DNA of 64,000 nt, taken from assembly GCA_963798485.1 (NCBI GenBank), contig CAWCTR010000021.1, positions 32,001-96,000 on the forward strand, in the 5' to 3' direction. A program made the translations under genes and the position numbers. Below, one piece after another: positions 44,059 to 62,352 of this stretch (positions are counted from its first letter, which is position 1; every line of letters begins with the position of its first letter). This DNA comes from an uncultured delta proteobacterium (GTDB lineage Bacteria > Desulfobacterota > Desulfomonilia > UBA1062). Below the pieces are notes generated by a model. That model searched no databases, was not told the DNA's origin, and worked only from the letters and a program-made list of their open reading frames with translations.

Positions 44059-44073
44059 TGGCATGCTACTTGC
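44059..44073 (+). promoter_or_regulatory. Sigma54 (-24/-12) promoter
   Basis: TGGCATGCTACTTGC matches TGGCAC-N5-TTGC with exact GG-N10-GC spacing, 46 bp before the SD-preceded ATG 44120; AT-rich upstream DNA. Confidence 0.78.
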
Positions 44074-44119
44074 CCTAGCTATTATCTATAATCGAGCTTG
44101 TGGAAAGGAGGTATTTACC

Positions 44120-46051: not shown

Positions 46052-46096
46052 GGTGATAATCCTCGGATTAAAATAATCAGACAAGGGAGATGCAAG

Positions 46097-46435: not shown

Positions 46436-46473
46436 CCTTACATCGAACGTTAAGATAATTATGCGGTTAAGGT

Positions 46474-48012
46474 ATGGAACCTTTTACCTACAATGATCTC
46501 GATGTTCTCCATGATCTTGCAAAGATCCTGGCGTCGCCCCTCGACTTAAGGGACCAGCTTGAACAAGGTATCAACGAACTCTGTGCCCGCACCGGGATGA
46601 ATAGGGCTATGATCTCCATACTCGACCGGGACAGCGGGATTGCCATCCTTGATGTCACTCACGGCGTGGATATCAACAGCAGAGAGATTATCTACAAACC
46701 CGGAGAGGGAATCACCGGCCAAGTGGCACAGACCGGAAAACCTTTAGTCATTACCAACCTCGATGAGGAGAAGCGCTTCCTCGACAGGACCGAATCCAGG
46801 CGGTCGTTGAATCGGTCGGAGTTTGTGTTTTTCTGTGTTCCCATCATCCATGATGACAAGGTGGTGGGTGTTCTCTCGGCTGATAAGGCTGCCATTGAGA
46901 CGGTCAACCAGGAGTATGAGCTGAAGCTTCTTTGTGAGGTTGCTGAACTGATAGCCAATGCCGTACACATGAGAGTTCTCGAGGAAGAGAACATCATGTT
47001 GAAAAACGTTCTTGAAAAAAGCGGGCTACCTTCAAAGGATCTTATCGGCAACTCTAAGGTCATGAAAGACGTATCCGACCTCATCTTTCAGGTTTCCGGA
47101 TCCGATGCTACTGTGCTTATCCATGGGGAGACAGGGACTGGGAAAGAACTTGTTGCCAGGGCCATCCATATGAATAGTCCCAGGGTTAATAACCCGTTTA
47201 TTGAGGTGAACTGCGCCGCCATTCCGGATACCCTTATAGAAAGCGTGCTATTCGGACATGAGAGAGGGGCCTTTACCGGCGCTGACAAGAGGAAGAAAGG
47301 AAGGTTCGAGGAGGCAAACCACGGGACCCTGTTTCTCGATGAAGTAGGGGAGCTCTCTTCCCTTGCACAAGCCAAGCTTCTGAAGGTGATCGAGCAGCGT
47401 AATTTCCAACCCCTGGGATCGAACACTATTGTGAAGGTCAATGTGCGTATCATTGCCGCCACCAACCGCGACCTTGAACAGGATGTGGCCGCCGACGAGT
47501 TCAGAGCGGACTTATACTACAGGCTCAATGTGTTCCCTATTTACATGCCTCCATTGCGGGATCGCGGTGGAGATATCATACTGCTTGCAAATTACTTTGT
47601 GGAGAAATATTCCAGGAAGTTCAGAAGATCCATTCATTACATCTCCACACCGGCCATTGATCTCCTGATTGCACACCATTGGCCCGGCAACGTGCGCGAG
47701 CTTGAGAATTGCATCGAAAGGGCCGTTCTGCTCACAAGAGGTGATACTATCGATGGTATGCATCTGCCCATCTCGATGCAGAAACAAATGGCAAGCACGG
47801 AGGAAAATCAGTACAGGAGACTGGAAAGCCTCATAGCAGCCTATGAGCGCTCAATAATCATGGATGCCATGAAAGCCGCCAGGGGTAACCAAAGCAAGGC
47901 AGCTCAACTCCTTGGAACCACCAAGCGCATCATGCAGTACAAGGTAGGGAAACATAATATCGACAGAAACCTTTTTAAGATAATAAAACCGAGGGCGACG
48001 AACCGGCATTGA
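46474..48012 (+). CDS. NifA-like sigma54 enhancer-binding protein (GAF-AAA+-HTH)
   Basis: GAF (YKPGEGITGQV, CVPI), GETGTGKE, GAFTGA, FLDEVGE, WPGNVRELEN, NQSKAAQLLG. Confidence 0.92.
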   Translation: MEPFTYNDLDVLHDLAKILASPLDLRDQLEQGINELCARTGMNRAMISILDRDSGIAILDVTHGVDINSREIIYKPGEGITGQVAQTGKPLVITNLDEEKRFLDRTESRRSLNRSEFVFFCVPIIHDDKVVGVLSADKAAIETVNQEYELKLLCEVAELIANAVHMRVLEEENIMLKNVLEKSGLPSKDLIGNSKVMKDVSDLIFQVSGSDATVLIHGETGTGKELVARAIHMNSPRVNNPFIEVNCAAIPDTLIESVLFGHERGAFTGADKRKKGRFEEANHGTLFLDEVGELSSLAQAKLLKVIEQRNFQPLGSNTIVKVNVRIIAATNRDLEQDVAADEFRADLYYRLNVFPIYMPPLRDRGGDIILLANYFVEKYSRKFRRSIHYISTPAIDLLIAHHWPGNVRELENCIERAVLLTRGDTIDGMHLPISMQKQMASTEENQYRRLESLIAAYERSIIMDAMKAARGNQSKAAQLLGTTKRIMQYKVGKHNIDRNLFKIIKPRATNRH

Positions 48013-48063
48013 TTTCTGCAGAAGCTTGGCCCCGACAATTCTATGACAACACCATAATACGTG

Positions 48064-48732
48064 TTACACCCGGTGGTCTTCACGGATGATGGTGCGGCAG
48101 CCTCCGGACAGGCTTGGACGCCAGTTCTTGGGCGGCCTGATCTCGTTGAGCCGGTCCAGCTGCCCAATATCTTTGAGCCGTTTGTAAATGAGCTGCCAGG
48201 CGCAGGGAAGGCTGGGGTTGACTTCGCACCGGTCTTCACGCGAGCCGCTGCACGGGCCGTTCATCATGTGCTTCGCGCAGCGGGTGACCGGGCAAATGCC
48301 GCCGTAAAGATGGAGCACACACGCGCCGCAGGCCGCACATTTTTCCGTCCAGATACCTCGTTCTTCCAGAATGCCGATGAAGGCGGTATCGAGGCCCGCG
48401 TAAACCGGTTTGTCTGCAAAACGTTCGGCCAGTGCCTGAACGCCGGCACCGCAGCCCAGGGACAGCACGGCGTCGACCTTCATGGCCGCCTCGGCGGCCT
48501 GTTCGAGGAAAACGTTGTCGCACTGGCGTTCTATGGTGAGTTCCTCGACGTCCAGGGGAAGATCATTCAATTTGGCCGCCATGCGTAGCGCCGAGGCGAT
48601 GATGCTGACTTCGCGCTGGCCGCCGGCGAGGCAGACCGTGACGCAGGTGCCGCAGCCGAGTACGAGCACCTTGCGGTGCTTTTCAACGATGGACAATAAG
48701 TCGGGAATGCTTTTTCTTTGAGCAACGATCAT
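48064..48732 (-). CDS. metV: Methylene-THF reductase subunit MetV (MTHFR C-terminal-domain protein)
   Basis: GCGTCVTVCLAGG, ERQC, GCGAGVQ, CAACGAC, GICPVTRCAK, NGPC, CAW; ATGA-coupled to mvhD. Confidence 0.88.
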   Translation of the reverse strand: MIVAQRKSIPDLLSIVEKHRKVLVLGCGTCVTVCLAGGQREVSIIASALRMAAKLNDLPLDVEELTIERQCDNVFLEQAAEAAMKVDAVLSLGCGAGVQALAERFADKPVYAGLDTAFIGILEERGIWTEKCAACGACVLHLYGGICPVTRCAKHMMNGPCSGSREDRCEVNPSLPCAWQLIYKRLKDIGQLDRLNEIRPPKNWRPSLSGGCRTIIREDHRV

Positions 48733-49175
48733 GAGCGACACTCCTGTTTTAATTTGCCGGTGGATTGTATCGGGCTGGGGCCCAGTTTGCGGACCGTTTC
48801 CACCATGTCGATGATGATATCCGCCAGGGGCCGCGCCATGGCGGCGGAAACGTTGACCATGCGGAGGCGTTCCTTTTCCATACCGATCTCATCGAGCATG
48901 TCCCGGATGTAGTTTACCCGGCGTTTGGCGCAGAGGTTGCCTTCGATGAAATGACAGCCCCCTTCGAGACAGCCTGCCACCAGCACGCCGTCCGCGCCGT
49001 TTTCAAATGCCTTCATGAAGTATTCGGTTTCCAGCCGTCCCGTACAGGGGGTGCGGATGATGAGCACGTTTGGCGGGTACTGGATGCGCATGGACCCCGC
49101 CAGATCGGCCGAGGAATAGGCGCAGTAGTGGCAGCAGAAGGCCACGATCTTGGGTTCAAATATGTCGGATTTCAT
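48729..49175 (-). CDS. mvhD: MvhD/FlpD [2Fe-2S] subunit
   Basis: AFCCHYCAYSSADLAG, PCTGR, GADGV, GCLEGGCH; start ATG 49175. Confidence 0.92.
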   Translation of the reverse strand: MKSDIFEPKIVAFCCHYCAYSSADLAGSMRIQYPPNVLIIRTPCTGRLETEYFMKAFENGADGVLVAGCLEGGCHFIEGNLCAKRRVNYIRDMLDEIGMEKERLRMVNVSAAMARPLADIIIDMVETVRKLGPSPIQSTGKLKQECRS

Positions 49176-49186
49176 GGATTGAGCTT

Positions 49187-52100
49187 TTACCTCCCACCAA
49201 TTGCCGAGCAGGCCGTGATTGTACTGTCTTCCCGGTCTTCTCCGAGGTTGCCGGCGAACAGTTCCTTGATCATCACCACAAACTGGTCTGTCTCGAAATG
49301 ATGCAGCTCTATGGCGCAGGCAGGACATTCGGCCGCGCAGATGCCGCAGCCCATACACTTGGCTGCCTCGATCTGCCCCTTGCCGTCCTTGTTGCAGTAG
49401 GGCGCGGAATACGGGCAGACCGTTACGCAGGTCATGCAGGAGATGCACTTTTGCTGGTCCACGTATGAGATCTGGGCGCTGACGTCGAGATGCGTCTTGG
49501 ATAGCACCGTGGCCGCACGCGATGCTGCTGCGCGCGCCTGCGAAATGTTTTCGTCAATGAACTTAGGCGAATGGGCCATGCCGCAGAGGAAAACGCCCTC
49601 GGTCGTAAAATCCACCGGCCGCAGCTTCATGTGCGCTTCCACATAGAAACCGTCGGTGTTGAGCGGCACCTTGAGCATGTCGGATATGCGCTTGTTGTTC
49701 TTAAAGTCCACTTCCACGCCCGTGCTGAGCACGACATTGTCGGCTTCGATCGCGAGCGGTTCGGCGAAGTCCGGGCTCTTGAGCGTGACGACCAAACCGC
49801 CTTCTTCTTTCACCGTCGGCGGCGCCTCGGGCGTGTACCGGATAAAGACCACGCCGGCCTCGCGCGCCTGCTGATAGTAGATTTCCCGGAAACCGTAGGT
49901 CCTCACATCACGGTAGAGAACATATACATTGGCTTGGGGGTCCTCCTTTTTGATGGCCAGCGCGTTTTTAACGGCCATGGAGCAGCAGATGCGGCTGCAA
50001 TAGGGATGCTTTTCGTCGCGCGAACCGACGCACTGGATCATGACGATGTTCTGTCCCAGGGCAGGCCACGACTTCTCATGCAGCCGCTTCTCAAGTTCGA
50101 CCTGCGTCAGAACTTTCTCGGAGCGGCCGTATAGATATTCGCCGGTCCTGGCCGCCTGCGCGCCCGTGGCAACAATGATGGTGCCACCGGTGACCTCCTG
50201 AATTTTGCCACCCTGGTCAAACGACACGTGGAACTTTCCGATGTGGCCTTTGATGCCTGCGACCTCGGCCTGGAGATACGTCTTGATATGGGAATGGTTC
50301 CTGACCTGGTCGATGAGACCGGTGGCGAAGGCGGCGATGTCCGCTTGCTCCAAGGTCCGGTATATATCGTGCAGGGTACCTCCCAGACGATTAGCCTGTT
50401 CGATCAAGTGGACGTCAAACCCCTGGTCGGCGAGCGCCAGCGCGGCTGTCATGCCGGAGAGGCCTCCGCCGATGACGATGCCGGTTTGGTCCACCGTGAG
50501 CGTTCCGCCTTCTAACGGCAAGAGCCTGCGGGCCCGGGCGATTGACATCTTCACGAGCTCAGCCGCCTTAACGGTAGCAGGTTCCGGCTCGGTAGAATGC
50601 ACCCAGGAGCACTGGTCGCGGATGTTTGTCATTTCGAACAGATAAGGGTTCAGGCCTGCTTCGCGGAGCGTCTCGCGGAACAGAGGCTCGTGCGTCCGCG
50701 GGGTGCACGAGGCCACCACGATGCGATTGAGCCGGTGCTGATGGATCATGTCCTTGATGTTCGACAGGCTCGTGTCGGAACAGGTGAACATGGTGTGCGT
50801 CGCTAAAACCACATTCGGCTCATGTTCCACGCGCTTGACCACTTCCTCGACGTCCACCACCGACCCGATGTTCATGCCGCAGTGGCAGACAAACACACCG
50901 AGGCGCGGTTCTTCATCGGTGACATCGTGCTCGATGGGATAGCTCTTTTTGGTGACCAGCGAATTACGGGCCGGCGCGAGCAGTTCCATGGCCATGGACG
51001 CCGCGGCGCTGGCCTGGGTCACGGTCTCGGGAATGTCCTTAGGCTCCTGGAAGGCGCCTCCCACGAACACGCCGGGCCGGGAAGTGCACAACGGCTGGAG
51101 CCGGTCGGTGTCGCAGAAACCGAACTCGTTGAGCTTGATGTTCATACCGGCGGCCATCTCCGCCATGCTGTGCGGCGGCTCCATGCCCACGGACAACACG
51201 ACCAGGTCGAACTCCTTGTGCGAAAGCCCGCCGTTTTCGTCGAAATATGTAAGCTGAAGGTCCTTGCTGCCGGGCAGCTGGACGATCCGCGAGGGGATGC
51301 TCTTGATGTATTGGATGTTGTCCTTGGCCCTGGCGCGCTCGTAATACTGATCGAAATCCTTGCCGTGGGCGCGGATGTCCATGTAGAAAATCGTGGCATC
51401 CAGGCTCTCGACGTGGTCGCCCGTGACGAGCGCCTGCTTGGTGGCCATCATGCAGCAGATGGATGAGCAGTATTCGTTGTTGCACGCCTTGTCGCGCGAA
51501 CCCACGCATTGGATCCAGGCGATGCGCCGGGCCTCGCGCCTGTCCGACAGGCGGATCACATGCCCTTCAAACGGCCCTGCGGCGGACAGCATCCGTTCAT
51601 ACTGGACGGAGGTGACCACGTTGGGATAGCGGCCGTAGCCGAACTCACCTTTAAGCGATGCATCGAACTCGTCAAAGCCCGGGGTCAGGATGACCGAGCC
51701 AACTTCGAGGGTGATTGTCCGTTCTTGCATGGCGTGGTCAATGGCGTTCTGCTTGCAGGTATCGACGCACCGGTTGCATTCCGAGCACAGGGCGCAATTG
51801 AGACACCGCTCGGCCTCAGAAAGGGCCTGCTCTTCGGTGAGCCCTTTCTCAACCTCGTCGAAATTCCTTAGACGGATGGAGGGCGAGAGCTCTTCCGGGC
51901 GAGGACGTGATCTTTTCTCGACCTTGTCGAGTTCAGGCAGGAGTTCTTCGGGAAGAGGGCTTAAGCTTTCCTCAAACCGGCCGCCGAGCAGATCCGTGCC
52001 CTTCAGATACCTCTCGATGGACTCGGCCACCCGTTTACCCGCGGCCACGGCATCGATCACGGAAGCTGGACCGCTCGTATTGTCGCCGCCTGCAAAAATG

Positions 52101-53686
52101 CTCTCAATGGACGTCTGCCCGGTCACCGGATCGGCCTTGAAACAGCCGCGCTCGGTCTGGACGCTGATGTGACTCACGGTCTGCTCGTCCACCATCTGTC
52201 CGATGGCCACGATGATCTGGTCGGCATCGATGGTGGTGAGAGCGTTTTCGTCAAAGGCCGGGCTGAAGCGTTTTTTCTCGTCGAAGACCCGGGTGCAGCG
52301 TTTGAGCTCGATGCCGGTGACTTTTCCGTTGCCGAGGATGCGCTTTGGGCCCCAGCCGTTACGGATCTTGATGTTTTCCGCGAGGGTGGCCTCGATCTCC
52401 TCTTCGTAGGCGGGCATCTCGTGGGGTCCTTCGAGGCAGACCATCTCGACATTTCTTGCGCCCAGGCGTAGCGCGGTACGGGCCACGTCGATGGCCACGT
52501 TGCCGCCGCCGATGACCAGCACCCGTTCCTTCACCTCGGGTTTATTGGCCGAAGCCGCTTCTCTTAAGAATTCTACGCCGTGCAGGACGCCCTCGATGTC
52601 CTCGCCTTGAACGCCGAGTTTGCGGCTCTTCTGGGCGCCGGCCGAAATGAAGATGGCTGCATAATCATTGCGCAGCGTCTGGAAGGTGACGTCCTGGCCG
52701 ATGCGGCAGCCATAGATGAACCTGACGCCCTTGCGGCGGATGATTTCGATCTCGTGGTCGAGCACCTTCTTGGGCAGGCGATACTCTGGGATCCCGTATC
52801 GGAGCATGCCGCCGGCTGCGGGCATGGCTTCGTAAACCGTGACGGCAAACCCTGCGTCAGCAAGATCATTGGCTGCTGTAAGCCCGGCCGGGCCGCCACC
52901 GATGATCGCGACCTTCTTGGCATCGGGTGCGATTACCTTTTCCTCCGGCAGAGCCAGATCGCCCGCCGCGAGCATCTCCATTTCCCTGTCCGATGCGAAG
53001 CGCTTCAACAGCCGGATGGCGATAGGGGCGTCGGCACCCGCCCTCGTGCATTCACTCTCGCAGGGATGGGTGCAGATGCGGCCGCAGATGGCCGAAAGCG
53101 GGTTCCTCTGACGGATGAGCTCTACCGCCTTGACATATTCCTTCTGCTTGATGAGCTGGACGTAGCCCTGGACGTTCACCCTGGCCGGGCATGTCATTTT
53201 GCAGGGAGAATGGCCGTTTTTAAGGATGCCGAAAATGTTCGGGGTGGCCTGGGCGTAAAGCTTTGCAATGCCCTTGCGGGTTCCCAGGCAGCGGTTGAAC
53301 TCGTCCGGGATGTCTACGGGGCAGACTAAAGTGCATTCGCTGCATCCGGTGCATTTGTCCTCGTACACAAACCGCGGATACCGCTTGACTCTTGCCCTGA
53401 AACGGCCCGGCCCGCCTTCGAGGCCCACCAGTTCGGAAAGCGTCAGAATCTCTATATTCAGGTTCCGCGCGCATTCGACGAGCTTGGGCGAGACGATGCA
53501 GGTGGCGCAGTCGCCGGTCGGGAAGGTCTTGTCCAGATGCGCCATCATACCCCCGATGGCTGCGTCGCGCTCGACGAGATACACCTTGAAGCCACTGTTT
53601 GCCAGATCGAGCGATGCCTGTACGCCGGCAATGCCGCCGCCCTGCACCAGCACCGCGCCGATTTTCTTGTCGTCCGATCTACTCAT
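49187..53686 (-). CDS. hdrA: Large HdrA-like flavoprotein with inserted GltD/NfnB-like pyridine-nucleotide module (HdrL type)
   Basis: GGGIAG..LDKTFPTGDC, two QCVGSR..CS..CCM HdrA repeats, ferredoxin motifs; insert PCKMTCP, ICGRICTHPCE, GGGPAG, GGMLRYGIPEYRLP, GGGNVA. Confidence 0.92.
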   Translation of the reverse strand: MSRSDDKKIGAVLVQGGGIAGVQASLDLANSGFKVYLVERDAAIGGMMAHLDKTFPTGDCATCIVSPKLVECARNLNIEILTLSELVGLEGGPGRFRARVKRYPRFVYEDKCTGCSECTLVCPVDIPDEFNRCLGTRKGIAKLYAQATPNIFGILKNGHSPCKMTCPARVNVQGYVQLIKQKEYVKAVELIRQRNPLSAICGRICTHPCESECTRAGADAPIAIRLLKRFASDREMEMLAAGDLALPEEKVIAPDAKKVAIIGGGPAGLTAANDLADAGFAVTVYEAMPAAGGMLRYGIPEYRLPKKVLDHEIEIIRRKGVRFIYGCRIGQDVTFQTLRNDYAAIFISAGAQKSRKLGVQGEDIEGVLHGVEFLREAASANKPEVKERVLVIGGGNVAIDVARTALRLGARNVEMVCLEGPHEMPAYEEEIEATLAENIKIRNGWGPKRILGNGKVTGIELKRCTRVFDEKKRFSPAFDENALTTIDADQIIVAIGQMVDEQTVSHISVQTERGCFKADPVTGQTSIESIFAGGDNTSGPASVIDAVAAGKRVAESIERYLKGTDLLGGRFEESLSPLPEELLPELDKVEKRSRPRPEELSPSIRLRNFDEVEKGLTEEQALSEAERCLNCALCSECNRCVDTCKQNAIDHAMQERTITLEVGSVILTPGFDEFDASLKGEFGYGRYPNVVTSVQYERMLSAAGPFEGHVIRLSDRREARRIAWIQCVGSRDKACNNEYCSSICCMMATKQALVTGDHVESLDATIFYMDIRAHGKDFDQYYERARAKDNIQYIKSIPSRIVQLPGSKDLQLTYFDENGGLSHKEFDLVVLSVGMEPPHSMAEMAAGMNIKLNEFGFCDTDRLQPLCTSRPGVFVGGAFQEPKDIPETVTQASAAASMAMELLAPARNSLVTKKSYPIEHDVTDEEPRLGVFVCHCGMNIGSVVDVEEVVKRVEHEPNVVLATHTMFTCSDTSLSNIKDMIHQHRLNRIVVASCTPRTHEPLFRETLREAGLNPYLFEMTNIRDQCSWVHSTEPEPATVKAAELVKMSIARARRLLPLEGGTLTVDQTGIVIGGGLSGMTAALALADQGFDVHLIEQANRLGGTLHDIYRTLEQADIAAFATGLIDQVRNHSHIKTYLQAEVAGIKGHIGKFHVSFDQGGKIQEVTGGTIIVATGAQAARTGEYLYGRSEKVLTQVELEKRLHEKSWPALGQNIVMIQCVGSRDEKHPYCSRICCSMAVKNALAIKKEDPQANVYVLYRDVRTYGFREIYYQQAREAGVVFIRYTPEAPPTVKEEGGLVVTLKSPDFAEPLAIEADNVVLSTGVEVDFKNNKRISDMLKVPLNTDGFYVEAHMKLRPVDFTTEGVFLCGMAHSPKFIDENISQARAAASRAATVLSKTHLDVSAQISYVDQQKCISCMTCVTVCPYSAPYCNKDGKGQIEAAKCMGCGICAAECPACAIELHHFETDQFVVMIKELFAGNLGEDREDSTITACSAIGGR

Positions 53687-54557
53687 GGCTGTTTACTTCC
53701 ATTTTATTTAAGACGTTTTCAGCGGGGACCATCAGCTTTTCAAACCCGAGCTCGCTCGCGTCAAGTCCCAGGCAAAGCCCGAGGAGCTGGGTGATGTAAA
53801 TCACCGGCATACGGTAGTTCCTGCCCATCTCTTTGTTGATGTCCTGCTGCCGCACATCGAGGTTGATCTGGCACATGGGGCAGCTGACCGCGATGCACTC
53901 CGCGCCCACCTGGACGGCCATGTCGATAATGGACTCGGTGAGCCTGAGCACCACGTCGGTCCGTGACAGCGACAAACTGCCGCCGCAGCAATCGACCTTG
54001 CAGGGCCATTCGAGGCTGAGGCCGCCCATAGCGGTCACCAGACGGTCGAGCGACTTCGGATTTTCCGCATCATCGAACCTGAGAATCTCCGGCGGCCGGA
54101 CCAGAAGGCAGCCGTAGTAGCAGGCAACCTTGAGGCCGTTAAGCGTTCTTTTGAGGGACTTGGTGATGGTCGGCAGGCCGACATCTTCGAGGAGCACCTC
54201 AAGGAGGTGGCGGACCTTGACGGAGCCGTCGTAATCCCTATCGAGCGCGTCACGTACATCCCTGCGGACCTCGGCGTGGGTGGAAATCTCGTGGTTGGCC
54301 ACCTTCATCCTATTGTAGCAGGCGGCACAGTTGACGACCATGTCCAGGTTCATGTCCTGGACCTTGGTCAGGTTGGCGGCGGGCAGTGCAACGGCGAGCA
54401 GGCGGTCGGTCTGGTGGCCGGCGGTGGCGCCGCAGCAGGTCCAGCCTTTGGGTTCCTCGAAATCGAGCTTAAGCGCCCGTGCGACCGCATACGTGGACTG
54501 GTTCATGTCGCGGGCCGTGGATTCTGCCGAGCATCCGGGATAGTAGGCGTATTTCAT
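53679..54557 (-). CDS. hdrB: Heterodisulfide reductase subunit B
   Basis: YYPGC, WTCCG, CAACY, YYGCLL, DCCG, CPMCQ. Confidence 0.93.
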   Translation of the reverse strand: MKYAYYPGCSAESTARDMNQSTYAVARALKLDFEEPKGWTCCGATAGHQTDRLLAVALPAANLTKVQDMNLDMVVNCAACYNRMKVANHEISTHAEVRRDVRDALDRDYDGSVKVRHLLEVLLEDVGLPTITKSLKRTLNGLKVACYYGCLLVRPPEILRFDDAENPKSLDRLVTAMGGLSLEWPCKVDCCGGSLSLSRTDVVLRLTESIIDMAVQVGAECIAVSCPMCQINLDVRQQDINKEMGRNYRMPVIYITQLLGLCLGLDASELGFEKLMVPAENVLNKMEVNSHE

Positions 54558-55120
54558 GCTCGGGTTCCTCGTTTTTGTTTTGCGTTCTTGAAAATGCGTC
54601 TCACGGTTTTCCTGTCGCCTTCCATGGGAGGCAGCAGCGCAATTTTTCCCTTCTTCAGCATGGCCGGGAATTTTTCCGTATCTTCCATCAGTTTGCCCGT
54701 GCCGATCTTGTAGGCTGTGATCATGGCGATATCGTAGGGGCGGCCGAAGATCTCGACCGTCTTCAAGAATGCGCGGTTGAACAGCGGCATATCGCCTTGA
54801 GGTTTCGGCGCGCCCCGATCTAAGGCCAGAGAGCGCAGCGAGTCCATGACAGAAGCCACGTCAATACCCATGGGGCAGCGGGCCGAGCAGGTTTCGCACG
54901 AGGCGCACAGCCAGATGAGGTCGCACTCGAGCAGTTCCTCACCGGCGCTGAGGTGCAGCATCCGCATGATTTCCGACGGCCTGGTTGTGGCCAGCTTTGC
55001 CACCGGACAGCCGCTCGAGCATTTCTTGCACTGTAAACAGACGCTCAGGTTCACGCCGGCCAGCTTCTCGACGGCATTCTTCAGACCATGGCCTATCCTT
55101 GCTTTTTTGATGGTTAGCAC
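54554..55120 (-). CDS. hdrC: Heterodisulfide reductase subunit C
   Basis: CLQCKKCSSGCP, IWLCASCETCSARCP. Confidence 0.92.
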   Translation of the reverse strand: MLTIKKARIGHGLKNAVEKLAGVNLSVCLQCKKCSSGCPVAKLATTRPSEIMRMLHLSAGEELLECDLIWLCASCETCSARCPMGIDVASVMDSLRSLALDRGAPKPQGDMPLFNRAFLKTVEIFGRPYDIAMITAYKIGTGKLMEDTEKFPAMLKKGKIALLPPMEGDRKTVRRIFKNAKQKRGTRA

Positions 55121-55139
55121 GATAATGTTCTCCAGCTAT

Positions 55140-57797
55140 TCATGCCAGTTCTTCAACTGTTTCTTCAGCCCGGACATCGTCGGTGTCCTCCAGGACAATA
55201 TCCTTGATGTTGCCGGGGACAACCTTGCGATACACCCGGCACGGTTTGAGCTGCTTGCCGTTCACGGTTAAAAGTTCCTTGACGGTTATCCCGAAATGTT
55301 TCTGGTTTTCCTCCAAAAACGGCAGGATCAGCTCCCAGTCGGCGTCGGTCACCTTGGCAAACTGGCCGCTGTTCAACTGCTGGTCCACCAGGGTCTTTCC
55401 CGGGTCACGGACAAAAATGGCGCCGCCCGAAGCCAGCGAAAACAGGTTGCTGCCCGGGTAAGGATCAACAAGCGGAACAGGTTTCCCTTCGTCGTCGAGC
55501 TTGACGCCGTTCAGGATCACGAAGCCGCCGCCGTTAAGCGGGTCGCCGGCCATGAAGGACTCGGCGAGAAAGTCGAGGCAGGTGCCGTTGATGACTACCT
55601 TGGGCCGTCCCACGGAGTTTATGAGCGGTCGTCCCGCTGCGTTGCCGAGCACATAGACCTCGCCGCCCTTGGCGCCGTACATGAAGGTCTGGCCCACGTC
55701 GCCATGAATGACCATTTTCCCCTGCTTGACGATCTGACCCAACTGGTCCTGGGCGTTGCCGTGCACCGTGATCGTCAGCCCGTCAATGCCCGAACCGAGA
55801 TAGTCGCCGCTGCTGCCGTACACGTCGATGAGAACACCCTCGGTTTCCGGACCGAGGCCGCAGCCGGTGTACCGCTGGCCGATGCAATTGAAGCAGATGA
55901 AACGGCGCCAGCCTAACATAAAAGCGTCAACCAGCAGCGCGGCGTCACAGTCATCTCCTTCTGGTGGAAACTGGGCAGCGTCGATCACCAGCGTGGTTTC
56001 CATGCCTTGCGGCCCTCGAAGGTGTCCGCGCGACATGAAATCAACCAGGCGATACGCGCCCTTTGCGGCATCCTTGTCGCTTATTTTGGGGAGGCTCGAG
56101 AAAAGCCGGCTCAGCGCGGTGCGCACGATGTGGAGCACATGGCTGCGTCTCTTCGCGCCGGTCGAGTAACGCCGGTCATTGAGCAGCGTCAGGACTTCTA
56201 TCGACGTGGCCGTCTTGGAAGGGTCCTTCGCCTGATTGATGATCTGCCGGCACGCCAGATCGATCTCGTCAAACGTCGATTCGGGTATGAGGTCGCGTAT
56301 CATTTCAAAAATCGTGACGCTGTTGCCGGGCACAAATCTCTCGCTGATTATTGTCTGTATAGTCTCCCTCGATTCGGAGGATACTGAAAATTCCTTGGAA
56401 AAATCGAACGACTCGGTGCCGCCAGGCATAGCGACCTGCGTACCGAATTTGTCCGTGCAAGTGATCCGGATTTTGCCGGCCGGATCTTTTTTCAGGTTGA
56501 AAATGAACGCCCCGCCGTCGTCATAGCTGCCACCGCGCGCGTTCCAGTAGCGGTCCGCAACGGGGCAGATCCGTTTATCATCCTTTGACAGGCTCATGAG
56601 TGTGGCATCAATGGCCTGTTTTTCCGAGGCGATCAGCCCCACCTGGACAACGCCATCGGTAAAGGCGAACACTTGGGGTCGCAGCATGGCGGTGTCGGTG
56701 ATGCCCATCAACTGGAACTGCCGCTGGCGGGCGAGGCTGCGGGCTATGATGAAGAACCAGGGGCCGTCGGGCGAGCCGTGCATGTGGGTGGCCTGGATGG
56801 CCCGGTAAACCTTCTGCTTTTCAAGGCCGAGCCGGTCGAAGTCAAGTTCCGTGGTCGGCGCCAGGGCTTCGATGATGTATTCCAGCGGGTAGTGGTAGGT
56901 CCTGCTGAGCAGGTCGAACAGCTGCGCGGACACTTCCGTATCGGTGAGAAACTGGGGATAGATATGGCGCTGTTTGAGATATTCGGTAACCGAATGGTAG
57001 TTGGCAAAGTCGCCGTTGTGCACCAGCGCCATGTCAATGGCAGCGAACGGATGGGCGCCGCCGGGGTGCCAGACACGACCCTTGGTGGGGAAACGCTGGT
57101 GGGCGATCCAAACGTGGGCGCACAGGTCCTCGATCTTGTAATACTTCACGATGGCCTCGGCATAGCCGACCACCTTGAGGATCATGATGTCCCTGCCGTG
57201 CGAGAGCACGAAGGCGCGTTTTTCGCCCAGGGACGCGTAATACTTCTGATTGAGGCTGAAGCTGTTCTGGCTGACGAATTCGTCCTCCGCCGCATCGCTC
57301 TCGAGCGCCTGCAGATTGTTCTTTTCGATGAACTCGCCCAGCACTTCCGGCTTGACGCGGACAAAGTATCGGCAAACATCCGGGGGGAGCACCTCGAGGC
57401 CCGGCACGGTCTTCCAATCCTCCATCTTGTCGAACTGCGCGGAGGCGGCAACGTCGAAGAAAGGCTTGATGAACTCCTCCTCGATTTCCGGACGCAAAGA
57501 AGTGTCGATGAAGGCTACATTCAGCAGGTAATAGTTGTCGAGCACCTCTCTGCTGACGCCGAGTTGCTCCGGGACGAGCCCCACCGCGGCGATTCCGCCT
57601 CCCTTGCCGTTCCCACGGTTGTGCATCTGGCGCGACGGCTCGTAAATGTGCCGGCCCGCCACCGGCTCGCTGCAGCAGAAACCGACCACGCCGCAGCCGC
57701 CTTCCTCCGCCTCCTTCCGAAGGATCGGGGGTAACCTGAGACTCTCAGCGAGCCTTTTTCTTGAACCGGTCAGCTTCTGGATCAATTCAGTGTTCAT
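55140..57797 (-). CDS. Glutamate synthase-like GATase-II domain fused to GXGXG domain (GltB1+GltB3)
   Basis: EEGGCGVVG Ntn cysteine, RGNGKGGG, HQRFPT, AHPF, VHNGD, TDTE; C-terminal GSSGDYLG, GNAQDQ, GNAAGR, ASGG repeats. Confidence 0.88.
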   Translation of the reverse strand: MNTELIQKLTGSRKRLAESLRLPPILRKEAEEGGCGVVGFCCSEPVAGRHIYEPSRQMHNRGNGKGGGIAAVGLVPEQLGVSREVLDNYYLLNVAFIDTSLRPEIEEEFIKPFFDVAASAQFDKMEDWKTVPGLEVLPPDVCRYFVRVKPEVLGEFIEKNNLQALESDAAEDEFVSQNSFSLNQKYYASLGEKRAFVLSHGRDIMILKVVGYAEAIVKYYKIEDLCAHVWIAHQRFPTKGRVWHPGGAHPFAAIDMALVHNGDFANYHSVTEYLKQRHIYPQFLTDTEVSAQLFDLLSRTYHYPLEYIIEALAPTTELDFDRLGLEKQKVYRAIQATHMHGSPDGPWFFIIARSLARQRQFQLMGITDTAMLRPQVFAFTDGVVQVGLIASEKQAIDATLMSLSKDDKRICPVADRYWNARGGSYDDGGAFIFNLKKDPAGKIRITCTDKFGTQVAMPGGTESFDFSKEFSVSSESRETIQTIISERFVPGNSVTIFEMIRDLIPESTFDEIDLACRQIINQAKDPSKTATSIEVLTLLNDRRYSTGAKRRSHVLHIVRTALSRLFSSLPKISDKDAAKGAYRLVDFMSRGHLRGPQGMETTLVIDAAQFPPEGDDCDAALLVDAFMLGWRRFICFNCIGQRYTGCGLGPETEGVLIDVYGSSGDYLGSGIDGLTITVHGNAQDQLGQIVKQGKMVIHGDVGQTFMYGAKGGEVYVLGNAAGRPLINSVGRPKVVINGTCLDFLAESFMAGDPLNGGGFVILNGVKLDDEGKPVPLVDPYPGSNLFSLASGGAIFVRDPGKTLVDQQLNSGQFAKVTDADWELILPFLEENQKHFGITVKELLTVNGKQLKPCRVYRKVVPGNIKDIVLEDTDDVRAEETVEELA

Positions 57798-59362
57798 TTT
57801 TCTGTCGTTCCCTCGTTGGTGTAATCCAAATGTATCATGAGGTCGGTGCGTCCGCGCAGCTCGCTCACGCTCTTGAGGCCGAGGCGCTTAAGAATTTTGA
57901 TCAGCGTTTTCTGCCAGGCGCTGTAAAGGTTGATGAGACGCTGGGCGCCCCATTCAGTAGTCATTTTGGCGGCAAGCACGGGGTCGGTCGTGGCGATGCC
58001 ACGCGGGCAGCCCCGCCCGCTCTCGCAGCGGCTGCAACGAACACAGCCCAGCGCCACCATTTCCGCGGTCCCGATGACCACCCCGTCCGCGCCCAAGGCG
58101 ATGGCCTTGGCGATGTCGTGGGCCGTGCGGATCCCGCCGCTGGCGATCAGCGTCACCTTGTCGCGGACGCCCTCGTCTGTAAGGAAATTGTGCACCTTGC
58201 CGATGGCGTATTCGATGGGCATGGCGATGTTCTTCTTGGCGATGTCCGGCGCCGCGCCGGTCCCGCCATAACCGCCGTCGATGTGGACGATGTGCGTGCC
58301 GGCGGAATAGCTCCCCACAGCCACCATGTCCACGTCCGTCGGGGTTGAAACCTTCGTCGAGATCAAGGCGCGCCGGTTCACGTGCTTGATCCATTCAATG
58401 TGCTTGGCGTGGTCTTCGATGGAATAGACGCTGTGGAACGGGAACGGGGAGAACAGGGAGATGCCGAGCACCGCCTCGCGCATGCGGGCCACGACGACGG
58501 TGTTTTTGTCGCCGAGCAGATGGCCGCCCAGGCCGGGCTTGGCGCCCTGGGCATACTTGAATTCCACGATGGGTACCCGCTGGATGGTTTCCTCGCGCAC
58601 GCCGAACAGGCCTGTGGCGACCTGTGTGATGACGTGGTCGTCATACGGTCGCATGCGTTCCATGTAGCCGCCCTCTCCTGTGCAGGTAAACGTGTTGAAC
58701 GCCACGCACGCCCGGGCCTTTGAAAGCTGGGTTACGTTGCTCACCGAGCCGAACGACATTCCGCCGCCGTACCAGGGAACGTCAATTTTGATTTCGGGTC
58801 GGCCGTCGCCGCGCTTGTTCAGCGAGATGCTCGTGTCGATCTCGCTCTCGTCGAGCAGGGCGGGCGGTTTGTCCGGGAATTTGAACCGGAGCCGGTCAAA
58901 GCCGCCGCCGGAATTGCCGCATTCGTAGTTGTAATCGTAGGCCTCATCCGGCACATCTCCGGTCTCGGCCATCTTCCATGTGGCCAAGATCAGATCCGCG
59001 GTCCAGCGATAATCGCCGAGCGCGGTGAACATGGGATTTTCCCGGATCGACAAGGCCCCTTGAGGGCAATGGGCCACGCAATACTTATCCGTCTTTTCGC
59101 AGGAAGGCCCGATGCACAGGTGATGCTCGGGCTCGCCGAAATATTTAAACCCGGGTTTGTGGACGTGGACGCCGTAGGAGCAGACCTCCACGCACTTGCC
59201 GCAACGTTTGCAATCCAAACTGCGGTGGACGATGTACTTGGCAATTTCGTTGCGATAGCGGGACGGCGCTGGTTTGACGAGGCGCTGCACCTGCTCCTGC
59301 GGCACGCGCGTCTTCAGCGTGTTCTCAGGCAGAATGTCCTCAAGACGGCTTTCTTTTTCCAT
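57794..59362 (-). CDS. Glutamate synthase FMN-binding subunit with N-terminal ferredoxin (GltB2)
   Basis: CKRCGKCVEVC, GGMSFGS, TGEGG, EFKYAQGAKPGLGGHL, GGTGAAP, ASGGIR, CVRCSRC..CPRGIAT; start ATG 59362. Confidence 0.92.
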   Translation of the reverse strand: MEKESRLEDILPENTLKTRVPQEQVQRLVKPAPSRYRNEIAKYIVHRSLDCKRCGKCVEVCSYGVHVHKPGFKYFGEPEHHLCIGPSCEKTDKYCVAHCPQGALSIRENPMFTALGDYRWTADLILATWKMAETGDVPDEAYDYNYECGNSGGGFDRLRFKFPDKPPALLDESEIDTSISLNKRGDGRPEIKIDVPWYGGGMSFGSVSNVTQLSKARACVAFNTFTCTGEGGYMERMRPYDDHVITQVATGLFGVREETIQRVPIVEFKYAQGAKPGLGGHLLGDKNTVVVARMREAVLGISLFSPFPFHSVYSIEDHAKHIEWIKHVNRRALISTKVSTPTDVDMVAVGSYSAGTHIVHIDGGYGGTGAAPDIAKKNIAMPIEYAIGKVHNFLTDEGVRDKVTLIASGGIRTAHDIAKAIALGADGVVIGTAEMVALGCVRCSRCESGRGCPRGIATTDPVLAAKMTTEWGAQRLINLYSAWQKTLIKILKRLGLKSVSELRGRTDLMIHLDYTNEGTTEK

Positions 59363-60734
59363 AGAGCCTGCCAAAGGTCTCCTCCTCGAGGTTCTCGAAA
59401 AACATGGCGCGGCCGACCTCGCCCCGCAGGCGACGGGCCTCGCGCATGCCCATGGCACCCATCAGTTCGATCAACTGGTCGTGCCATGCCGCGATCAGGT
59501 TCGTCATCCGGCCCACACCGTAGTTGAAATCGATTTCCTGAAGCCTGGCCGGACACGGCGACCCGGGCTCGCAACTGTTACACAGATGACATTCAAGCGC
59601 GATCATAAGCGGCAGGTTGATGGTAACCAGGTCGGCACCGCAGATGATGGCCTTGGCCATGTGCTCCGGCAGCGCGATACCGCCTCCGGCCATGAGCGTG
59701 ATTTCATCCCGGATGCCCCTCTCGATGAGCGCGGTATGAATCTGACGGATCATGTCCTTTATAAACCGCGGCTTTTTCGCCAAGAGTTCATTGCCGTCGG
59801 CATCGGAAACGAGGTGGATCACTTCAATCTCTTCCAGAGCGGCCAGATCTATGGCGCGGCCGATTCCCGCATCGGTCAGTTCCATCCGGATGGCTACGAC
59901 AATTTCCGGGTGGATTTTTTTGATTTCCCTGATGCGCTCCGCCACGGCGGGGCTGTCGGCGATTTCCACCAGGCGGGTTTTTTTCAGCAACGCATCCGGC
60001 ACGCTCGGGCTATCCGGGCCAAGATAAAACGCGATGTTCTCCAGGTGGGCGTCACTGGACGGCCGGTATTTTGAGTCCATAAGGGCGATCAGGCCGGTGT
60101 CGGCGGCGGTCTGTTCGATGATCGGGTCAAGCTTCGGCAGCGTGTGCGCTGGCGAACTCAAATCAAGGATCAACGGCATCGGAAGCGAGACCAGCGGCGG
60201 CAAGGCCGTTGATTTGTTTCCATTCACCACCAGAAACGGCGGCTTGCGGCCGATGTCGACCGAAGTGCTGATGTATTCCCGCCCGTGAATGCCGTCGCGG
60301 GTCGGGCGGACAATCTCCGACATGTCCGTCCACATGGAATCGAAGCCCTGGCCGGAAAACGGCCCCCGGTAGCCTGCGCCGGAAACCGGAATTTTTGCGG
60401 TTTCGGCCTGAAGCCATGTCGTTTTGATGATATCGGGTTTCCAATAACTGTTCCCGAGCTTTTCATACTCCGGGTTTACTGAAAGGCGCAAGATGCCTTT
60501 GGTGCAGTCCTGCACGCAGGAAAAACAACCCATGCAGTCAAAAAACAATGCCTCTACATCGCTTAAGTTGCGGATGTATTCCGCCTCCTGTCTGTAGCGG
60601 TCATAGACACAGGCCTTTTTAACGCAGTTATGACACCGGGCGCAGTCTTCCCGCCAGTCCACCACTCCATGTTTGCCTATGCGCGGCCGCAACGGCGGAA
60701 CCGGCTGGGTCTTGATGTGATATTTCTCCGGCAT
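59340..60734 (-). CDS. Degenerate glutamate synthase FMN-domain paralog with ferredoxin domain
   Basis: CARCHNCVKKAC, CMGCFSCVQDC, AGGGI, GAD, CHLCNSC..CP; lacks MSFG, TGEGG and QGAKPG. Confidence 0.78.
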   Translation of the reverse strand: MPEKYHIKTQPVPPLRPRIGKHGVVDWREDCARCHNCVKKACVYDRYRQEAEYIRNLSDVEALFFDCMGCFSCVQDCTKGILRLSVNPEYEKLGNSYWKPDIIKTTWLQAETAKIPVSGAGYRGPFSGQGFDSMWTDMSEIVRPTRDGIHGREYISTSVDIGRKPPFLVVNGNKSTALPPLVSLPMPLILDLSSPAHTLPKLDPIIEQTAADTGLIALMDSKYRPSSDAHLENIAFYLGPDSPSVPDALLKKTRLVEIADSPAVAERIREIKKIHPEIVVAIRMELTDAGIGRAIDLAALEEIEVIHLVSDADGNELLAKKPRFIKDMIRQIHTALIERGIRDEITLMAGGGIALPEHMAKAIICGADLVTINLPLMIALECHLCNSCEPGSPCPARLQEIDFNYGVGRMTNLIAAWHDQLIELMGAMGMREARRLRGEVGRAMFFENLEEETFGRLYGKRKPS

Positions 60735-60749
60735 AATCTCTCCAAGCGC

Positions 60750-61649
60750 CTACAGTCCGGAAGCGGCGACCAATTCGGGCACAATTGCTTCCTTGCCGCC
60801 CGAAAGGATGTGTATTCCGCGCAAACCAGTAAGCGCCTTGAGCTGCTTGATGGTTTCAGCGCAAATAGCCAAGCCTTCCTTCTTACCGGCATCGCCTGCT
60901 TTTTCCAGCCGTTCAATGACTTCGTCCGGAATACGGAATTCGGCATACGTATTGCGGAGTTTTTGGGCTTCCGTTACACTTTCCAAGGGATATACACCGG
61001 CCAAGATGGCGGCCTTTTTGGTGATGCCTTCCTTGCGGGCGGCGTCGAGCCAAAGGCCAAAGGACTGGATGTCAAACACCGCATGAGTCTGAATGAACCT
61101 GGCGCCGGCTTCGACTTTTTTACCCAGCCTGAACAGGTTAAGTTCCAGCGGTTTCATGAATGGATTTACCACCGCACCCACCAGCATCGAAAACTGCCCG
61201 TCTATGCCGGTTCCGTCGGCCAGCACGCCGTTTTCGGTCATCCGGTTGGCCAACTCGATTAACTGAATGGAATCGATATCATATACATTAACTGATTCCG
61301 GACATCCGATCAGTGTCTGATGATAACCGGACATGCAGAGCACATTCTTGATTCCCAGGCTGGCGGCCCCCAGCAGATCGGACTGTAACGCGATGCGATT
61401 CCGGTCGCGGGTGACCATTTGAAGGACCGGTTCAACACCCAATCTCATCGCTGCCGCGGATGCGGCCATCGACGACAGCGCCACGCCGTGTGAATTGTCA
61501 GCCATGCCCACGGCCACCGGTTTGCCGCCAAAATACTTCAAAGCCGCTTCAACGGTTGCGCCTGATGCAGTGGCGCCGGGCGCACACTCAGCGGTGACGA
61601 TAAAATCTCCCGTCTCGATTTTTTTTGCGAGTTTGCTGTCGACTTTCAT
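60750..61649 (-). CDS. metF: MetF-like flavoprotein (methylene-THF reductase family, atypical active site)
   Basis: VTAE, RDRNRIALQSDLLGA, KKVEAGA, GIHI; SGYH and QTH in place of SGDH and QTQ. Confidence 0.85.
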   Translation of the reverse strand: MKVDSKLAKKIETGDFIVTAECAPGATASGATVEAALKYFGGKPVAVGMADNSHGVALSSMAASAAAMRLGVEPVLQMVTRDRNRIALQSDLLGAASLGIKNVLCMSGYHQTLIGCPESVNVYDIDSIQLIELANRMTENGVLADGTGIDGQFSMLVGAVVNPFMKPLELNLFRLGKKVEAGARFIQTHAVFDIQSFGLWLDAARKEGITKKAAILAGVYPLESVTEAQKLRNTYAEFRIPDEVIERLEKAGDAGKKEGLAICAETIKQLKALTGLRGIHILSGGKEAIVPELVAASGL

Positions 61650-61663
61650 GCTACCGTGCTCTC

Positions 61664-62086
61664 CTATTTGTTGGCGGCGCCGCTTCGAGCATACGTCGGG
61701 GGTAGAGTTCTTAGGCGTTCAATGAACTGTTTGATTTCGCCGAGGACTTCTCCGGCGTCGGGTTTCCCGCACTCAAAAACGGCCATCCGGCCCGCGGCCA
61801 CGCCGATTTCATCCAGCAGCGCTTCAACGGCCTCGGCGCGTTTGCGCGCCCGCAGATTGCCCTCGAAGTGGCGACACTCGTTCTTTTTGCAGGTCACAAT
61901 CGCCACACCGTCCGCACCTGTTTCAAAGGATTTAATCAAATAAGGGATATCCACCTTTCCGGAACAGGGCAGACTGATGATCTTGATCGTATCGCCATCG
62001 TGTATAGTGCATAAACCCGAAAACTGGCTTGCTTCAAGATTGTTTGAGCAATAAAAAATATAAGTTTTCAACGCCTGATTGTTCAT
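61664..62086 (-). CDS. Second MvhD/FlpD-like [2Fe-2S] protein
   Basis: FYC, LPCSGKV, GADGV, TCKKNECRH; four Cys at MvhD-like spacing. Confidence 0.85.
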   Translation of the reverse strand: MNNQALKTYIFYCSNNLEASQFSGLCTIHDGDTIKIISLPCSGKVDIPYLIKSFETGADGVAIVTCKKNECRHFEGNLRARKRAEAVEALLDEIGVAAGRMAVFECGKPDAGEVLGEIKQFIERLRTLPPTYARSGAANK

Positions 62087-62352
62087 AAATCTTGTTTCCT
62101 TTGGTGAAAAAAATCAATCAAGCCAGTTGGGCCGTTCACACTCTTCACCGGCGCAAGGCAGGCCATATGCCTTTCAAGGTCCCAGCACCATCGTGGTTGA
62201 TCGTCGCCTGCATAAAACATGAGACATATAAAAGAACATGACAGCGAAGTCCATAACTTTCTTAATAACATGGGTATACCCAACATTTTATTACGATTAT
62301 TACGAATTATTACGGATCTCACCCCCTGCTCGTAGCAGTAAAGAAAGCTGGC

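Follow-up and report, generated by a model that had tools for sequence, protein, structure and literature searches.

The window analysed here, a stretch of 64,000 nucleotides from an uncultured delta proteobacterium (contig CAWCTR010000021.1 of assembly GCA_963798485.1), contains ten minus-strand open reading frames (ORFs) that fill the interval 48064-62086 and are designated g1 to g10 in the order of transcription. Their products are two small iron-sulfur proteins of the MvhD type, a divergent MetF-like flavoprotein (MetF*), a MetV protein, three relatives of glutamate synthase parts (GltB2', GltB2 and a GltB1/3 fusion) and an HdrC-HdrB-HdrL set (Table 1). The genes are closely packed, with junctions from g1/g2 to g9/g10 measuring, in order, +14, +15, -23, -4, +19, -4, -8, +11 and -4 bp; the largest gap is thus 19 bp and the largest overlap 23 bp. 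Translation starts were assigned from the ribosome-binding site for g9, from the ATGA overlap for g10 and, for g4, from the ATG common to the N-termini of orthologues. A sequence-only reading of this DNA had recognized ten tightly coupled genes with these identities and a GltD/NfnB-like module inside HdrA; domain matches and junctions bear out the first claim, profile and PDB matches (see below) the second. We propose that the ten genes encode a single modular iron-sulfur flavoprotein system having glutamate synthesis as its output, that is, an alternative glutamate synthase (GOGAT) devoid of classical GltD, and consider this proposal somewhat likelier to be right than wrong.

Table 1. The ten-gene cluster and adjoining features (window coordinates).
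Feature	Coordinates	Strand	Supporting evidence
g1, MvhD-like small iron-sulfur protein (MvhD'), 140 aa	61664..62086	-	Pfam FlpD/MvhD 90.7 bits
g2, divergent MetF-like flavoprotein (MetF*), 299 aa	60750..61649	-	Pfam MTHFR 92.2 bits
g3, GltB2', 464 aa	59340..60734	-	Pfam Fer4 + C-terminal third of Glu_synthase, 50.8 bits
g4, GltB2, 522 aa	57794..59362	-	Pfam Fer4 + Glu_synthase 303.3 bits
g5, GltB1/3 fusion, 885 aa	55140..57797	-	Pfam GATase_6 29.8 bits + GXGXG 56.8 bits
g6, HdrC-like, two [4Fe-4S] clusters, 188 aa	54554..55120	-	Pfam 4Fe-4S dicluster; NCBIfam CoB_CoM_SS_C 61.3 bits, below model cut-off
g7, HdrB-like, 292 aa	53679..54557	-	Pfam CCG in two stretches; TIGR03288 197.4 bits, below cut-off
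g8, HdrL, 1499 aa	49187..53686	-	HdrA-like in four stretches, 960.8 bits to HdrA2 model
g9, MvhD, 148 aa	48729..49175	-	Pfam FlpD/MvhD 161.9 bits; ATG preceded by GGGAGG
g10, MetV, 222 aa	48064..48732	-	Pfam DUF5981 (MetV C-terminal domain, MTHFR C-terminal partner) 125.2 bits
Presumed promoter region, 266-bp intergenic, upstream of g1	62087..62352	-	sequence read
asnB, glutamine-dependent asparagine synthase, just upstream, same strand	62353..63981	-	Pfam Asn_synthase 307.8 bits + GATase_7
Permease-PII fusion, PII, GAF/sigma-54 activator; convergent with operon end	44039..48012	+	Pfam

Judged from its sequence, the Glt trio looks competent, with glutaminase, synthase site and beta-helix all represented. 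Alignment of g5 places a class-II, N-terminal nucleophile (Ntn) glutaminase domain from Cys35 onward, behind a 34-residue leader, and the GXGXG beta-helix domain at residues 638-810. The context of the cysteine (EEGGCGV) is kept in 11 of 12 diverse g5 homologues, and the motifs R-x-x-T-x-G, HNG and TDTE, typical of class-II amidotransferases, are conserved across the homologues. Because canonical GltB and PurF are made with propeptides, the leader is compatible with activity. The notion that the g5 glutaminase is internal, and hence dead, came from a Pfam match confined to residues 228-295 and was rejected on the basis of the alignment, which puts the domain start at Cys35. As a whole, g5 is only remotely similar to characterised glutamate synthase (GltS), the GXGXG part scoring an E value of ~0.007. 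The g4 protein aligns over 310 residues with positions 857-1169 of the Azospirillum GltS alpha subunit (182.5 bits). When aligned to structures 1ea0 and 2vdc, it keeps the lysine of QGAKPG, the arginine of ARxR, the glutamate of YSIED, the GGTGA and GGIR sequences and the cysteine cluster motif; the lysine, arginine and (loop-4) glutamate are presumably the residues that bind 2-oxoglutarate and couple the two sites in the Synechocystis structure.

An N-terminal ferredoxin-like domain is present in both g3 and g4. The g3 protein is devoid of GGTGA and of the segment holding the 2-oxoglutarate-binding lysine, arginine and glutamate, and its three 4-Cys motifs are invariant. By these features g3 is a non-catalytic paralogue of the GOGAT flavin mononucleotide (FMN) domain that has kept its iron-sulfur motifs. 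A run of 20 residues (g3 136-155, window ~60270-60329, minus strand) is invariant in 26 orthologues down to 42% identity and may be a docking or cofactor site. In the AlphaFold model of g3, the mean predicted local distance difference test score (pLDDT) is 75, with values above 90 in the barrel and poor ones in the first 160 residues; the invariant run falls in a low-confidence part. The modelled beta/alpha barrel resembles IMPDH, flavocytochrome b2 and, at rank 47, GltS. Searches also returned 980 longer proteins that match g3 at E <= 1e-20 and have lengths near 980 aa. The one that was checked, P0282, is g3-like over residues 1-460 (52% identity) and g4-like over residues 490-982 (65% identity). 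Since g3 and g4 are fused into one polypeptide in other organisms, we conclude that the two function as one unit.

Three giant polypeptides, P0149 (3016 aa), P0177 (3152 aa) and P0211 (2526 aa), join several GOGAT and donor modules, among them a GlcD-like FAD-linked oxidase (FAD_binding_4 plus FAD-oxidase_C; FAD, flavin adenine dinucleotide), ferredoxin domains, a GOGAT FMN domain and a g5-type glutaminase/GXGXG portion. Fusions of this type may be 2-hydroxyacid-driven glutamate synthases. As they join a GlcD-like dehydrogenase to GltB2 and GltB1-3 parts, a GOGAT core of this type appears to accept different donor modules.

To what extent the ten genes travel together was assessed from g5. Scoring of 8000 candidates yielded 7652 homologues at E <= 1e-10, the best 120 being 75-92% identical, and a g5 relative is encoded in at least 577 of 596 pattern-matching stretches (one genome per species). 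The best 80 g5 loci were examined by tblastn with the ten window proteins; 44 of them had enough flank (4.4 kb or more upstream, 7.4 kb or more downstream) to be informative, and the other 36 were too short and were dropped. All gene types occur in 28 of the 44, and 21 of these repeat the ten-gene order identically in other genomes, so the arrangement is more than chance. Four loci, which end just after GltB2', and locus L045 hold all types except GltB2, in a circularly permuted order (Desulfobacterales). MetF, MetV, MvhD, GltB2', GltB2 and GltB1/3 stand without Hdr genes in eight loci and with an HdrA-like gene, again without HdrBC, in one (L089); the remaining two (L070 and L077) lack MetFV. 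The synteny survey called for by the sequence-only reading was thus positive, the arrangement recurring across genomes. HdrABC, which that reading had cast as the partner of the glt genes, does accompany them in most cases (HdrBC plus HdrL in 33 of 44 loci) and is missing in 11; the constant partners are MetF, MetV and MvhD, found with glt genes in 42 of 44. The earlier model gave MetFV no role. Within the same class, three relatives carry the six-gene, Hdr-less form, and a genome of the same genus carries the ten-gene form at 85-94% identity.

Overall, hundreds of anaerobic species from peat, sediment, groundwater and digesters carry the operon, with identities of 57-93%; their records label them as Verrucomicrobiota, Planctomycetota, Thermodesulfobacteriota, Chloroflexota, Bacteroidota, Ignavibacteriota, Spirochaetota, Armatimonadota, Latescibacterota and Myxococcota. 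Genus labels among the carrier MAGs (metagenome-assembled genomes) include Syntrophorhabdus, Smithella, Desulfosudis/Desulfococcus, Desulforapulum and Anaeromyxobacter. In the complete Desulfobacterales chromosome G001, the source of L045, the permuted cluster lies at ~2.51-2.53 Mb with no adjoining GltB2 match, and a pair of genes resembling GltB2' and GltB2 is found ~1 Mb away (C1:1511109-1512987). The core may be split over two loci in this organism.

The surroundings of the cluster point to nitrogen assimilation. Here the operon forms part of a nitrogen-assimilation island spanning ~32 kb of the genome, with two PII genes on one side and asnB, glnD, glnK, amt, a sigma-54 activator, a split GOGAT, glnA and carA on the other. 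When 1104 ORFs of the 80 loci were compared all-against-all and grouped without bias, the ten cluster families reappeared, and the recurrent flanking families included glnA (9 loci), amt (8), PII (6), carA (5), carB (5), GAF-ANTAR regulators (4) and glutamine amidotransferases (GATases) of class I (5) and class II (3). Locus L056 has glnA-glnE directly upstream and L081 has nrfA upstream. At least one neighbour from a panel made up of GlnA, PII, Amt, GlnD, GlnE, AsnB and CarA occurs in 18 of the 80 loci, as against 4.0% of equal-sized windows in this genome, an enrichment to be read as rough since related genomes are not independent. The sequence-only reading had taken the flanking asnB and PII genes as support for a nitrogen role; Pfam matches confirm both genes, and the nitrogen context comes out much strengthened, given the extent of the island and the recurrence of glnA, amt, PII, glnE and carAB elsewhere.

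The operon is not the organism's sole means of making glutamate. A second, conventional split GOGAT is encoded ~10 kb from it (L005:6232-11355; ~102.2-107.4 kb on the contig, 6-11 kb past the window end) and consists of a 376-aa GltB1 that begins with Met-Cys, a 544-aa GltB2 and a GltB3-GltD fusion of 778 aa. A sigma-54 activator borders it on one side and glnA-carA on the other; glnD, glnK and amt come shortly before. The g4 protein is only 32% identical to this housekeeping GltB2. The sequence-only reading had stated that there is no gltD, which holds for the ten-gene cluster, where no separate gltD was found, and fails for the genome, in which the GltB3-GltD fusion stands beside glnA. All six genomes examined hold another GOGAT-type FMN domain and another methylene-tetrahydrofolate (methylene-THF) reductase (MTHFR), and in the five other carriers a better-scoring GOGAT FMN domain was found elsewhere in every case. 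The idea that the operon provides the organism's only GOGAT or only MTHFR was discarded in view of the second split GOGAT and of a canonical MetF.

Several observations mark the operon as acquired. Its G+C content is 58.9% against 50.6% for the genome, a value reached by only 1.8% of 14-kb windows. Among 14 other species of the genus, four have g5, three at 85-93% identity and one as a remnant (G017:C7:196884-198401; 49% identity over residues 70-569, six in-frame stops), which suggests that loss is in progress in some relatives. Elsewhere in the family g5 is present in 2 of 10 genomes; in the sister family, all 16 genomes have a copy 55-60% identical, and the three that were examined are of the six-gene form. 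A FastTree phylogeny of 75 g5 sequences comprises two starred clades and places the window g5 inside a Verrucomicrobiota-labelled group (support 99) that adjoins Planctomycetota (support 100); 24 changes of phylum label are needed on this tree, the minimum being 10. A tblastn search with g5 of 72,556 plasmid records gave no match. Misbinning of a high-GC piece was rejected in view of the 271-kb contig with typical flanks and by the three same-genus carriers at 85-93%. We take the operon to be an accessory enzyme system, gained by horizontal transfer and working beside a conventional GOGAT. In the same-genus locus L096 (G012:C3:48000-67900; operon 85-94% identical), no asnB or PII gene was detected within 6.5 kb upstream, and the insertion site may differ from that in the window.

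The DNA was also scanned for control elements. No sigma-54 consensus with two or fewer mismatches occurs in 62087-62352, and window-wide 53 matches were found where 61.7 are expected; sigma-54 control, despite the adjoining GAF/sigma-54 activator, thus finds no support here. Sigma-70 and terminator scans over 47800-62500 gave chance-level results only, and the predicted operon boundaries are those set by gene spacing alone. The first gene of the convergent group (44039-46051, plus strand) encodes 670 residues with an amino-acid-permease-type membrane domain (~100-520) and a C-terminal PII domain (558-664), and is followed by the free PII gene and the GAF/sigma-54 activator; it is unusual for a transporter to contain its own PII sensor. 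Further away, the segment 33628-42911, unrelated to the operon, contains two acyl-CoA dehydrogenases, a short-chain dehydrogenase/reductase (SDR), an HdrD-like CCG/4Fe-4S protein (39566-40759, minus strand) and an iron alcohol dehydrogenase.

The Hdr genes show the features of an HdrABC module, namely two CCG motifs in HdrB, two 4-Cys motifs in HdrC and an HdrA-like FAD/iron-sulfur protein. Eight HdrC cysteines are invariant in 31 sequences, and invariant cluster ligands occur in HdrL as well. HdrL matches methanogen HdrA (PDB 5odc_A) in four stretches totalling 576 bits and is made up of an HdrA-like module split by a GltD/NfnB-like module of the pyridine-nucleotide (NAD(P)H) type, a second HdrA-like module (~1070-1408) and a C-terminal 2x[4Fe-4S] domain. 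The inserted module (157-663) scores 552 bits to NF009410, 258 bits to NfnB (4ylf_B) and 147 bits to GltD (2vdc_G). In a self-comparison, residues 1070-1153 pair with 13-97 and residues 1168-1408 with 663-916, after which come two 4-Cys motifs; dinucleotide-binding motifs lie at 16, 263, 393 (GxGxxA) and 1073.

As to the constant partners, residues C13, C41, C66 and C71 of MvhD' (g1) are invariant in 13 orthologues, and the protein is 30% identical to g9; in MetV (g10), 13 cysteines are invariant in 32 sequences. Along its full length the MetF* profile can be aligned with human MTHFR (E 5e-20), and E21, the equivalent of the catalytic glutamate, is kept in 44 of 45 sequences. The position of the folate-binding aspartate of human and E. 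coli MTHFR is occupied in MetF* by Tyr109, and by Y, H or F in all 26 sequences of clade I (three of them assigned to the clade by identity, the others from the tree); in clade II the aspartate is kept in 16 of 19. In the E. coli enzyme the two residues are Glu28 and Asp120. The MTHFR score of MetF* is 92 bits, that of the genome's other MetF 301 bits. Since the folate-binding aspartate has been lost in clade I, MetF* is more likely a flavin relay or a pyridine-nucleotide site than a methylene-THF reductase. In many Thermodesulfobacteriota (Desulfobulbia, Thermodesulfatator, Thermosulfurimonas and cable bacteria by source names), MetF forms one protein with the delta subunit of acetyl-CoA synthase (P0404-P0518; PF02219 plus PF03599), and some of these proteins also contain TPR repeats.

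These data bear on an explanation in which two uncoupled enzymes share one co-regulated operon, one of them a Moorella-type (type IV) methylene-THF reductase serving C1 metabolism and the other a ferredoxin-dependent split glutamate synthase. All six subunits of the Moorella type, as listed in the excerpts of PMC8760232 and PMC6085437, are indeed encoded, and the nearest longer homologues of MetF*, at 37-45% identity (~40%), are MetF-MetV and MetF-CdhD fusions, that is, genuine folate/Wood-Ljungdahl enzymes. This genome also has acetyl-CoA synthase (CdhC); the operon holds the only MetV, HdrB, HdrC and HdrL homologues found in it, the other MetF being in a housekeeping context; and archaeal-type GltB2 has a ferredoxin-like domain of its own. 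Nevertheless, MetF is encoded near one end of the operon and MetV at the other, all glt and hdr genes standing in between, and MetF, MetV and MvhD stay with glt where Hdr is absent, in the eight informative loci and the three relatives mentioned above. CdhC was found in only three of ten other carrier genomes; the seven without it include a complete chromosome, the others being subject to the incompleteness of MAGs. No Wood-Ljungdahl gene family recurs in the flanks of the 80 loci, and the operon thus appears not to be tied to that pathway. The replacement of the folate-binding aspartate throughout clade I and a second MvhD, a subunit lacking from the descriptions of the Moorella enzyme, also argue against two separate enzymes, an arrangement that we regard as unlikely.

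We consider it quite improbable that the Glt trio is instead an amidotransferase or imine-reducing enzyme for some other amine or keto acid, with MetF and MetV handling a one-carbon or redox product. N-methylglutamate synthase, which presumably also has GltB1-, GltB2- and GltB3-like parts, provides a precedent, and such an enzyme would give a meaning to the tight and ancient association of MetF (with the aspartate in clade II) and GltB-like proteins, which has no role in a plain GOGAT. The remoteness of g5 from characterised GltS and the invariant 20-residue motif of g3, to which no function is assigned, could be viewed in the same light. Conversely, g4 keeps every residue aligned to the 2-oxoglutarate/FMN site of solved GltS, and the neighbours are general ammonium-assimilation genes (glnE, glnD, amt, PII, carAB) rather than methylamine genes, GlnA-type neighbours keeping company with glnE, amt and PII. 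No sarcosine-oxidase-type dehydrogenase is present among the ten annotated recurrent flank families, although no search was aimed at it.

Less probable still is a Hdr part working mainly as an NAD(P)H-dependent reductase of its own thiol/disulfide substrate (DsrC-like or a low-molecular-weight disulfide), with GOGAT as one of several sinks. In its favour, the two HdrB CCG motifs, which mark the disulfide-reducing site of methanogen HdrB, have all ten cysteines invariant in 35 sequences. Against it, the conserved core can do without HdrBC (11 of 44 informative loci lack it), the flanks show no recurrent gene for a candidate thiol carrier, and some carriers are fermenters whose phyla are not known to respire sulfur compounds.

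Under the single-system proposal, g5 would supply the Ntn glutaminase and the GXGXG beta-helix and g4 the FMN/2-oxoglutarate synthase site, with g3 acting alongside g4. Electrons would reach g3 and g4 through MvhD ([2Fe-2S]), MetV (iron-sulfur) and the MetF-like flavoprotein. In the six-protein form the donor is probably reduced ferredoxin, or else a pyridine nucleotide at the MetF flavin; reduced ferredoxin serves as donor to MetVF enzymes in vitro according to the excerpts of PMC8760232. The ten-gene form, found in the window's clade, adds HdrB, HdrC and HdrL, and NAD(P)H would be oxidised on HdrL, entry of pyridine nucleotide at this point being suggested by its NAD(P)H-type module. An HdrA flavin would then divide the two electrons, with the Glt branch on one side and a low-potential or disulfide branch on the other. 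The large free-energy drop of glutamine-dependent reductive amination probably drives this flavin-based bifurcation, and the low-potential partner may be ferredoxin or a substrate of the intact HdrB site.

A number of points weigh against this proposal. Complex formation, co-transcription, the NADH donor and bifurcation are all things that we infer from the DNA, and the physical link of MetFV, MvhD and Hdr with the Glt proteins is putative. Complex prediction for GltB2' with MetF* and MvhD' spoke neither for nor against such a link, its score of 0.55 being close to the 0.52 of a control in which another protein stood in for MetF*. No Glu_synthase domain (PF01645) is present in the best 120 of 259 longer MetF* homologues (E <= 1e-25), so fusions of MetF* with Glt parts were not seen there. 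By its relationships MetF* belongs to the acetogen/Wood-Ljungdahl type, and the aspartate kept in clade II suggests that a real folate reaction may belong to the ancestral system. HdrB, HdrC and HdrA scores lie below the NCBIfam equivalog cut-offs. Cys35 of g5 could act as N-terminal nucleophile only if the 34-residue leader is cleaved, a predicted requirement. The occurrence of a second GOGAT and a second MTHFR in all six genomes makes the physiological need for the operon less clear, and the GltD encoded beside glnA, a remote donor of the kind that the sequence-only reading had named as evidence against itself, could conceivably serve the Glt subunits. Finally, 2-iminoglutarate and methylene-THF are both high-potential acceptors, and bifurcation needs a low-potential partner.

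A more specific version of the single-system proposal envisages a new class of glutamate synthase, in which the six-protein core docks on HdrL-HdrBC and bifurcates electrons of NAD(P)H between the strongly exergonic, glutamine-dependent amination of 2-oxoglutarate and ferredoxin or another low-potential or disulfide acceptor, and which has spread by horizontal transfer over at least ten labelled phyla. We advance it tentatively, as possible though rather doubtful. If it is true, nitrogen assimilation itself would conserve energy: a bifurcating Hdr part would let organisms close to the thermodynamic limit regain energy from an otherwise wasteful anabolic reaction. At low ammonium it is mainly through GOGAT that ammonium enters biomass, and textbooks distinguish three types by electron donor (NADPH via GltD, NADH and ferredoxin), beside which the window operon would represent a fourth architecture. 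It would also give a function-linked context to the long-standing puzzle of what bacterial HdrABC and HdrL complexes reduce. A practical consequence concerns annotation, since a genome listing MetF, MetV and HdrABC does not by that fact give evidence of a Wood-Ljungdahl methyl branch. The findings are thus relevant to flavin-based bifurcation, to nitrogen assimilation in anaerobes and to the annotation of Wood-Ljungdahl genes.

The closest known system is the type IV methylene-THF reductase MetFV-HdrABC-MvhD of Moorella thermoacetica, reportedly described by Mock et al. in 2014. In the excerpts of PMC8760232, HdrA is the site of NADH oxidation in this enzyme, and a second electron acceptor is postulated and not known; the window operon may show the kind of second acceptor site that Moorella-type MetFV-Hdr complexes serve. 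The two have in common the co-location of the same six subunit types and a MetF of the acetogen/Wood-Ljungdahl type. The window operon differs by the addition of three GOGAT-type genes and a second MvhD, by the separation of MetF from MetV, by an HdrA that is a 1499-aa HdrL with two HdrA-like modules, by the loss of the folate-binding aspartate and by the missing link to acetyl-CoA synthase in seven of ten other carriers. It is also far more widespread, with at least 577 species genomes as compared to the 25 'Bf Met' homologues counted in PMC6085437.

With archaeal-type split GOGAT, exemplified by this genome's own second cluster, the operon shares separate glutaminase, FMN plus ferredoxin-like and GXGXG parts, the catalytic residues and nitrogen-related neighbours; it departs from it in having GltB1 and GltB3 fused behind the 34-residue leader, an extra, dead GltB2' and no GltD. 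The likeness to bacterial NADPH-GltS (GltBD; 1ea0, 2vdc, 6s6s) lies in the 310 residues of the FMN domain and in the HdrL module alignable with GltD. In the window, however, the GltD-like module is inside an HdrA-like protein rather than in a GltB-bound subunit, and there is no central domain, for which g3 may stand in. The putative F420-dependent glutamate synthases, as portrayed in the excerpts of PMC9012536, likewise have archaeal-type GltB parts fed by a module other than GltD; those are archaeal and use an FrhB-type F420 input module, whereas the window operon has MetFV, MvhD and Hdr.

The HdrL architecture itself has precedents, having been named HdrL in Desulfobacterium autotrophicum (PMC2702500) and, for archaea, 'type III HdrA with inserted GltD domain' (PMC12054007). 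The resemblance to these is one of architecture, that is, HdrA with a GltD-like NAD(P)H module, followed by mvhD. The excerpts of those papers place HdrL beside dsrABC, fdh or other genes and make no link with GltB-type or MetFV genes; the pyridine-nucleotide motif is GxGxxA in the window HdrL and GxGxxG in the archaeal type III proteins as reported there. A full-text literature search, with subscription journals and supplements outside its reach, returned no description of GltB-type genes together with MetFV and Hdr genes. The parts of the operon belong to known families; what appears to be new is their combination, and also that these glutamate synthase genes have their constant partners in MetFV and MvhD and not in Hdr.

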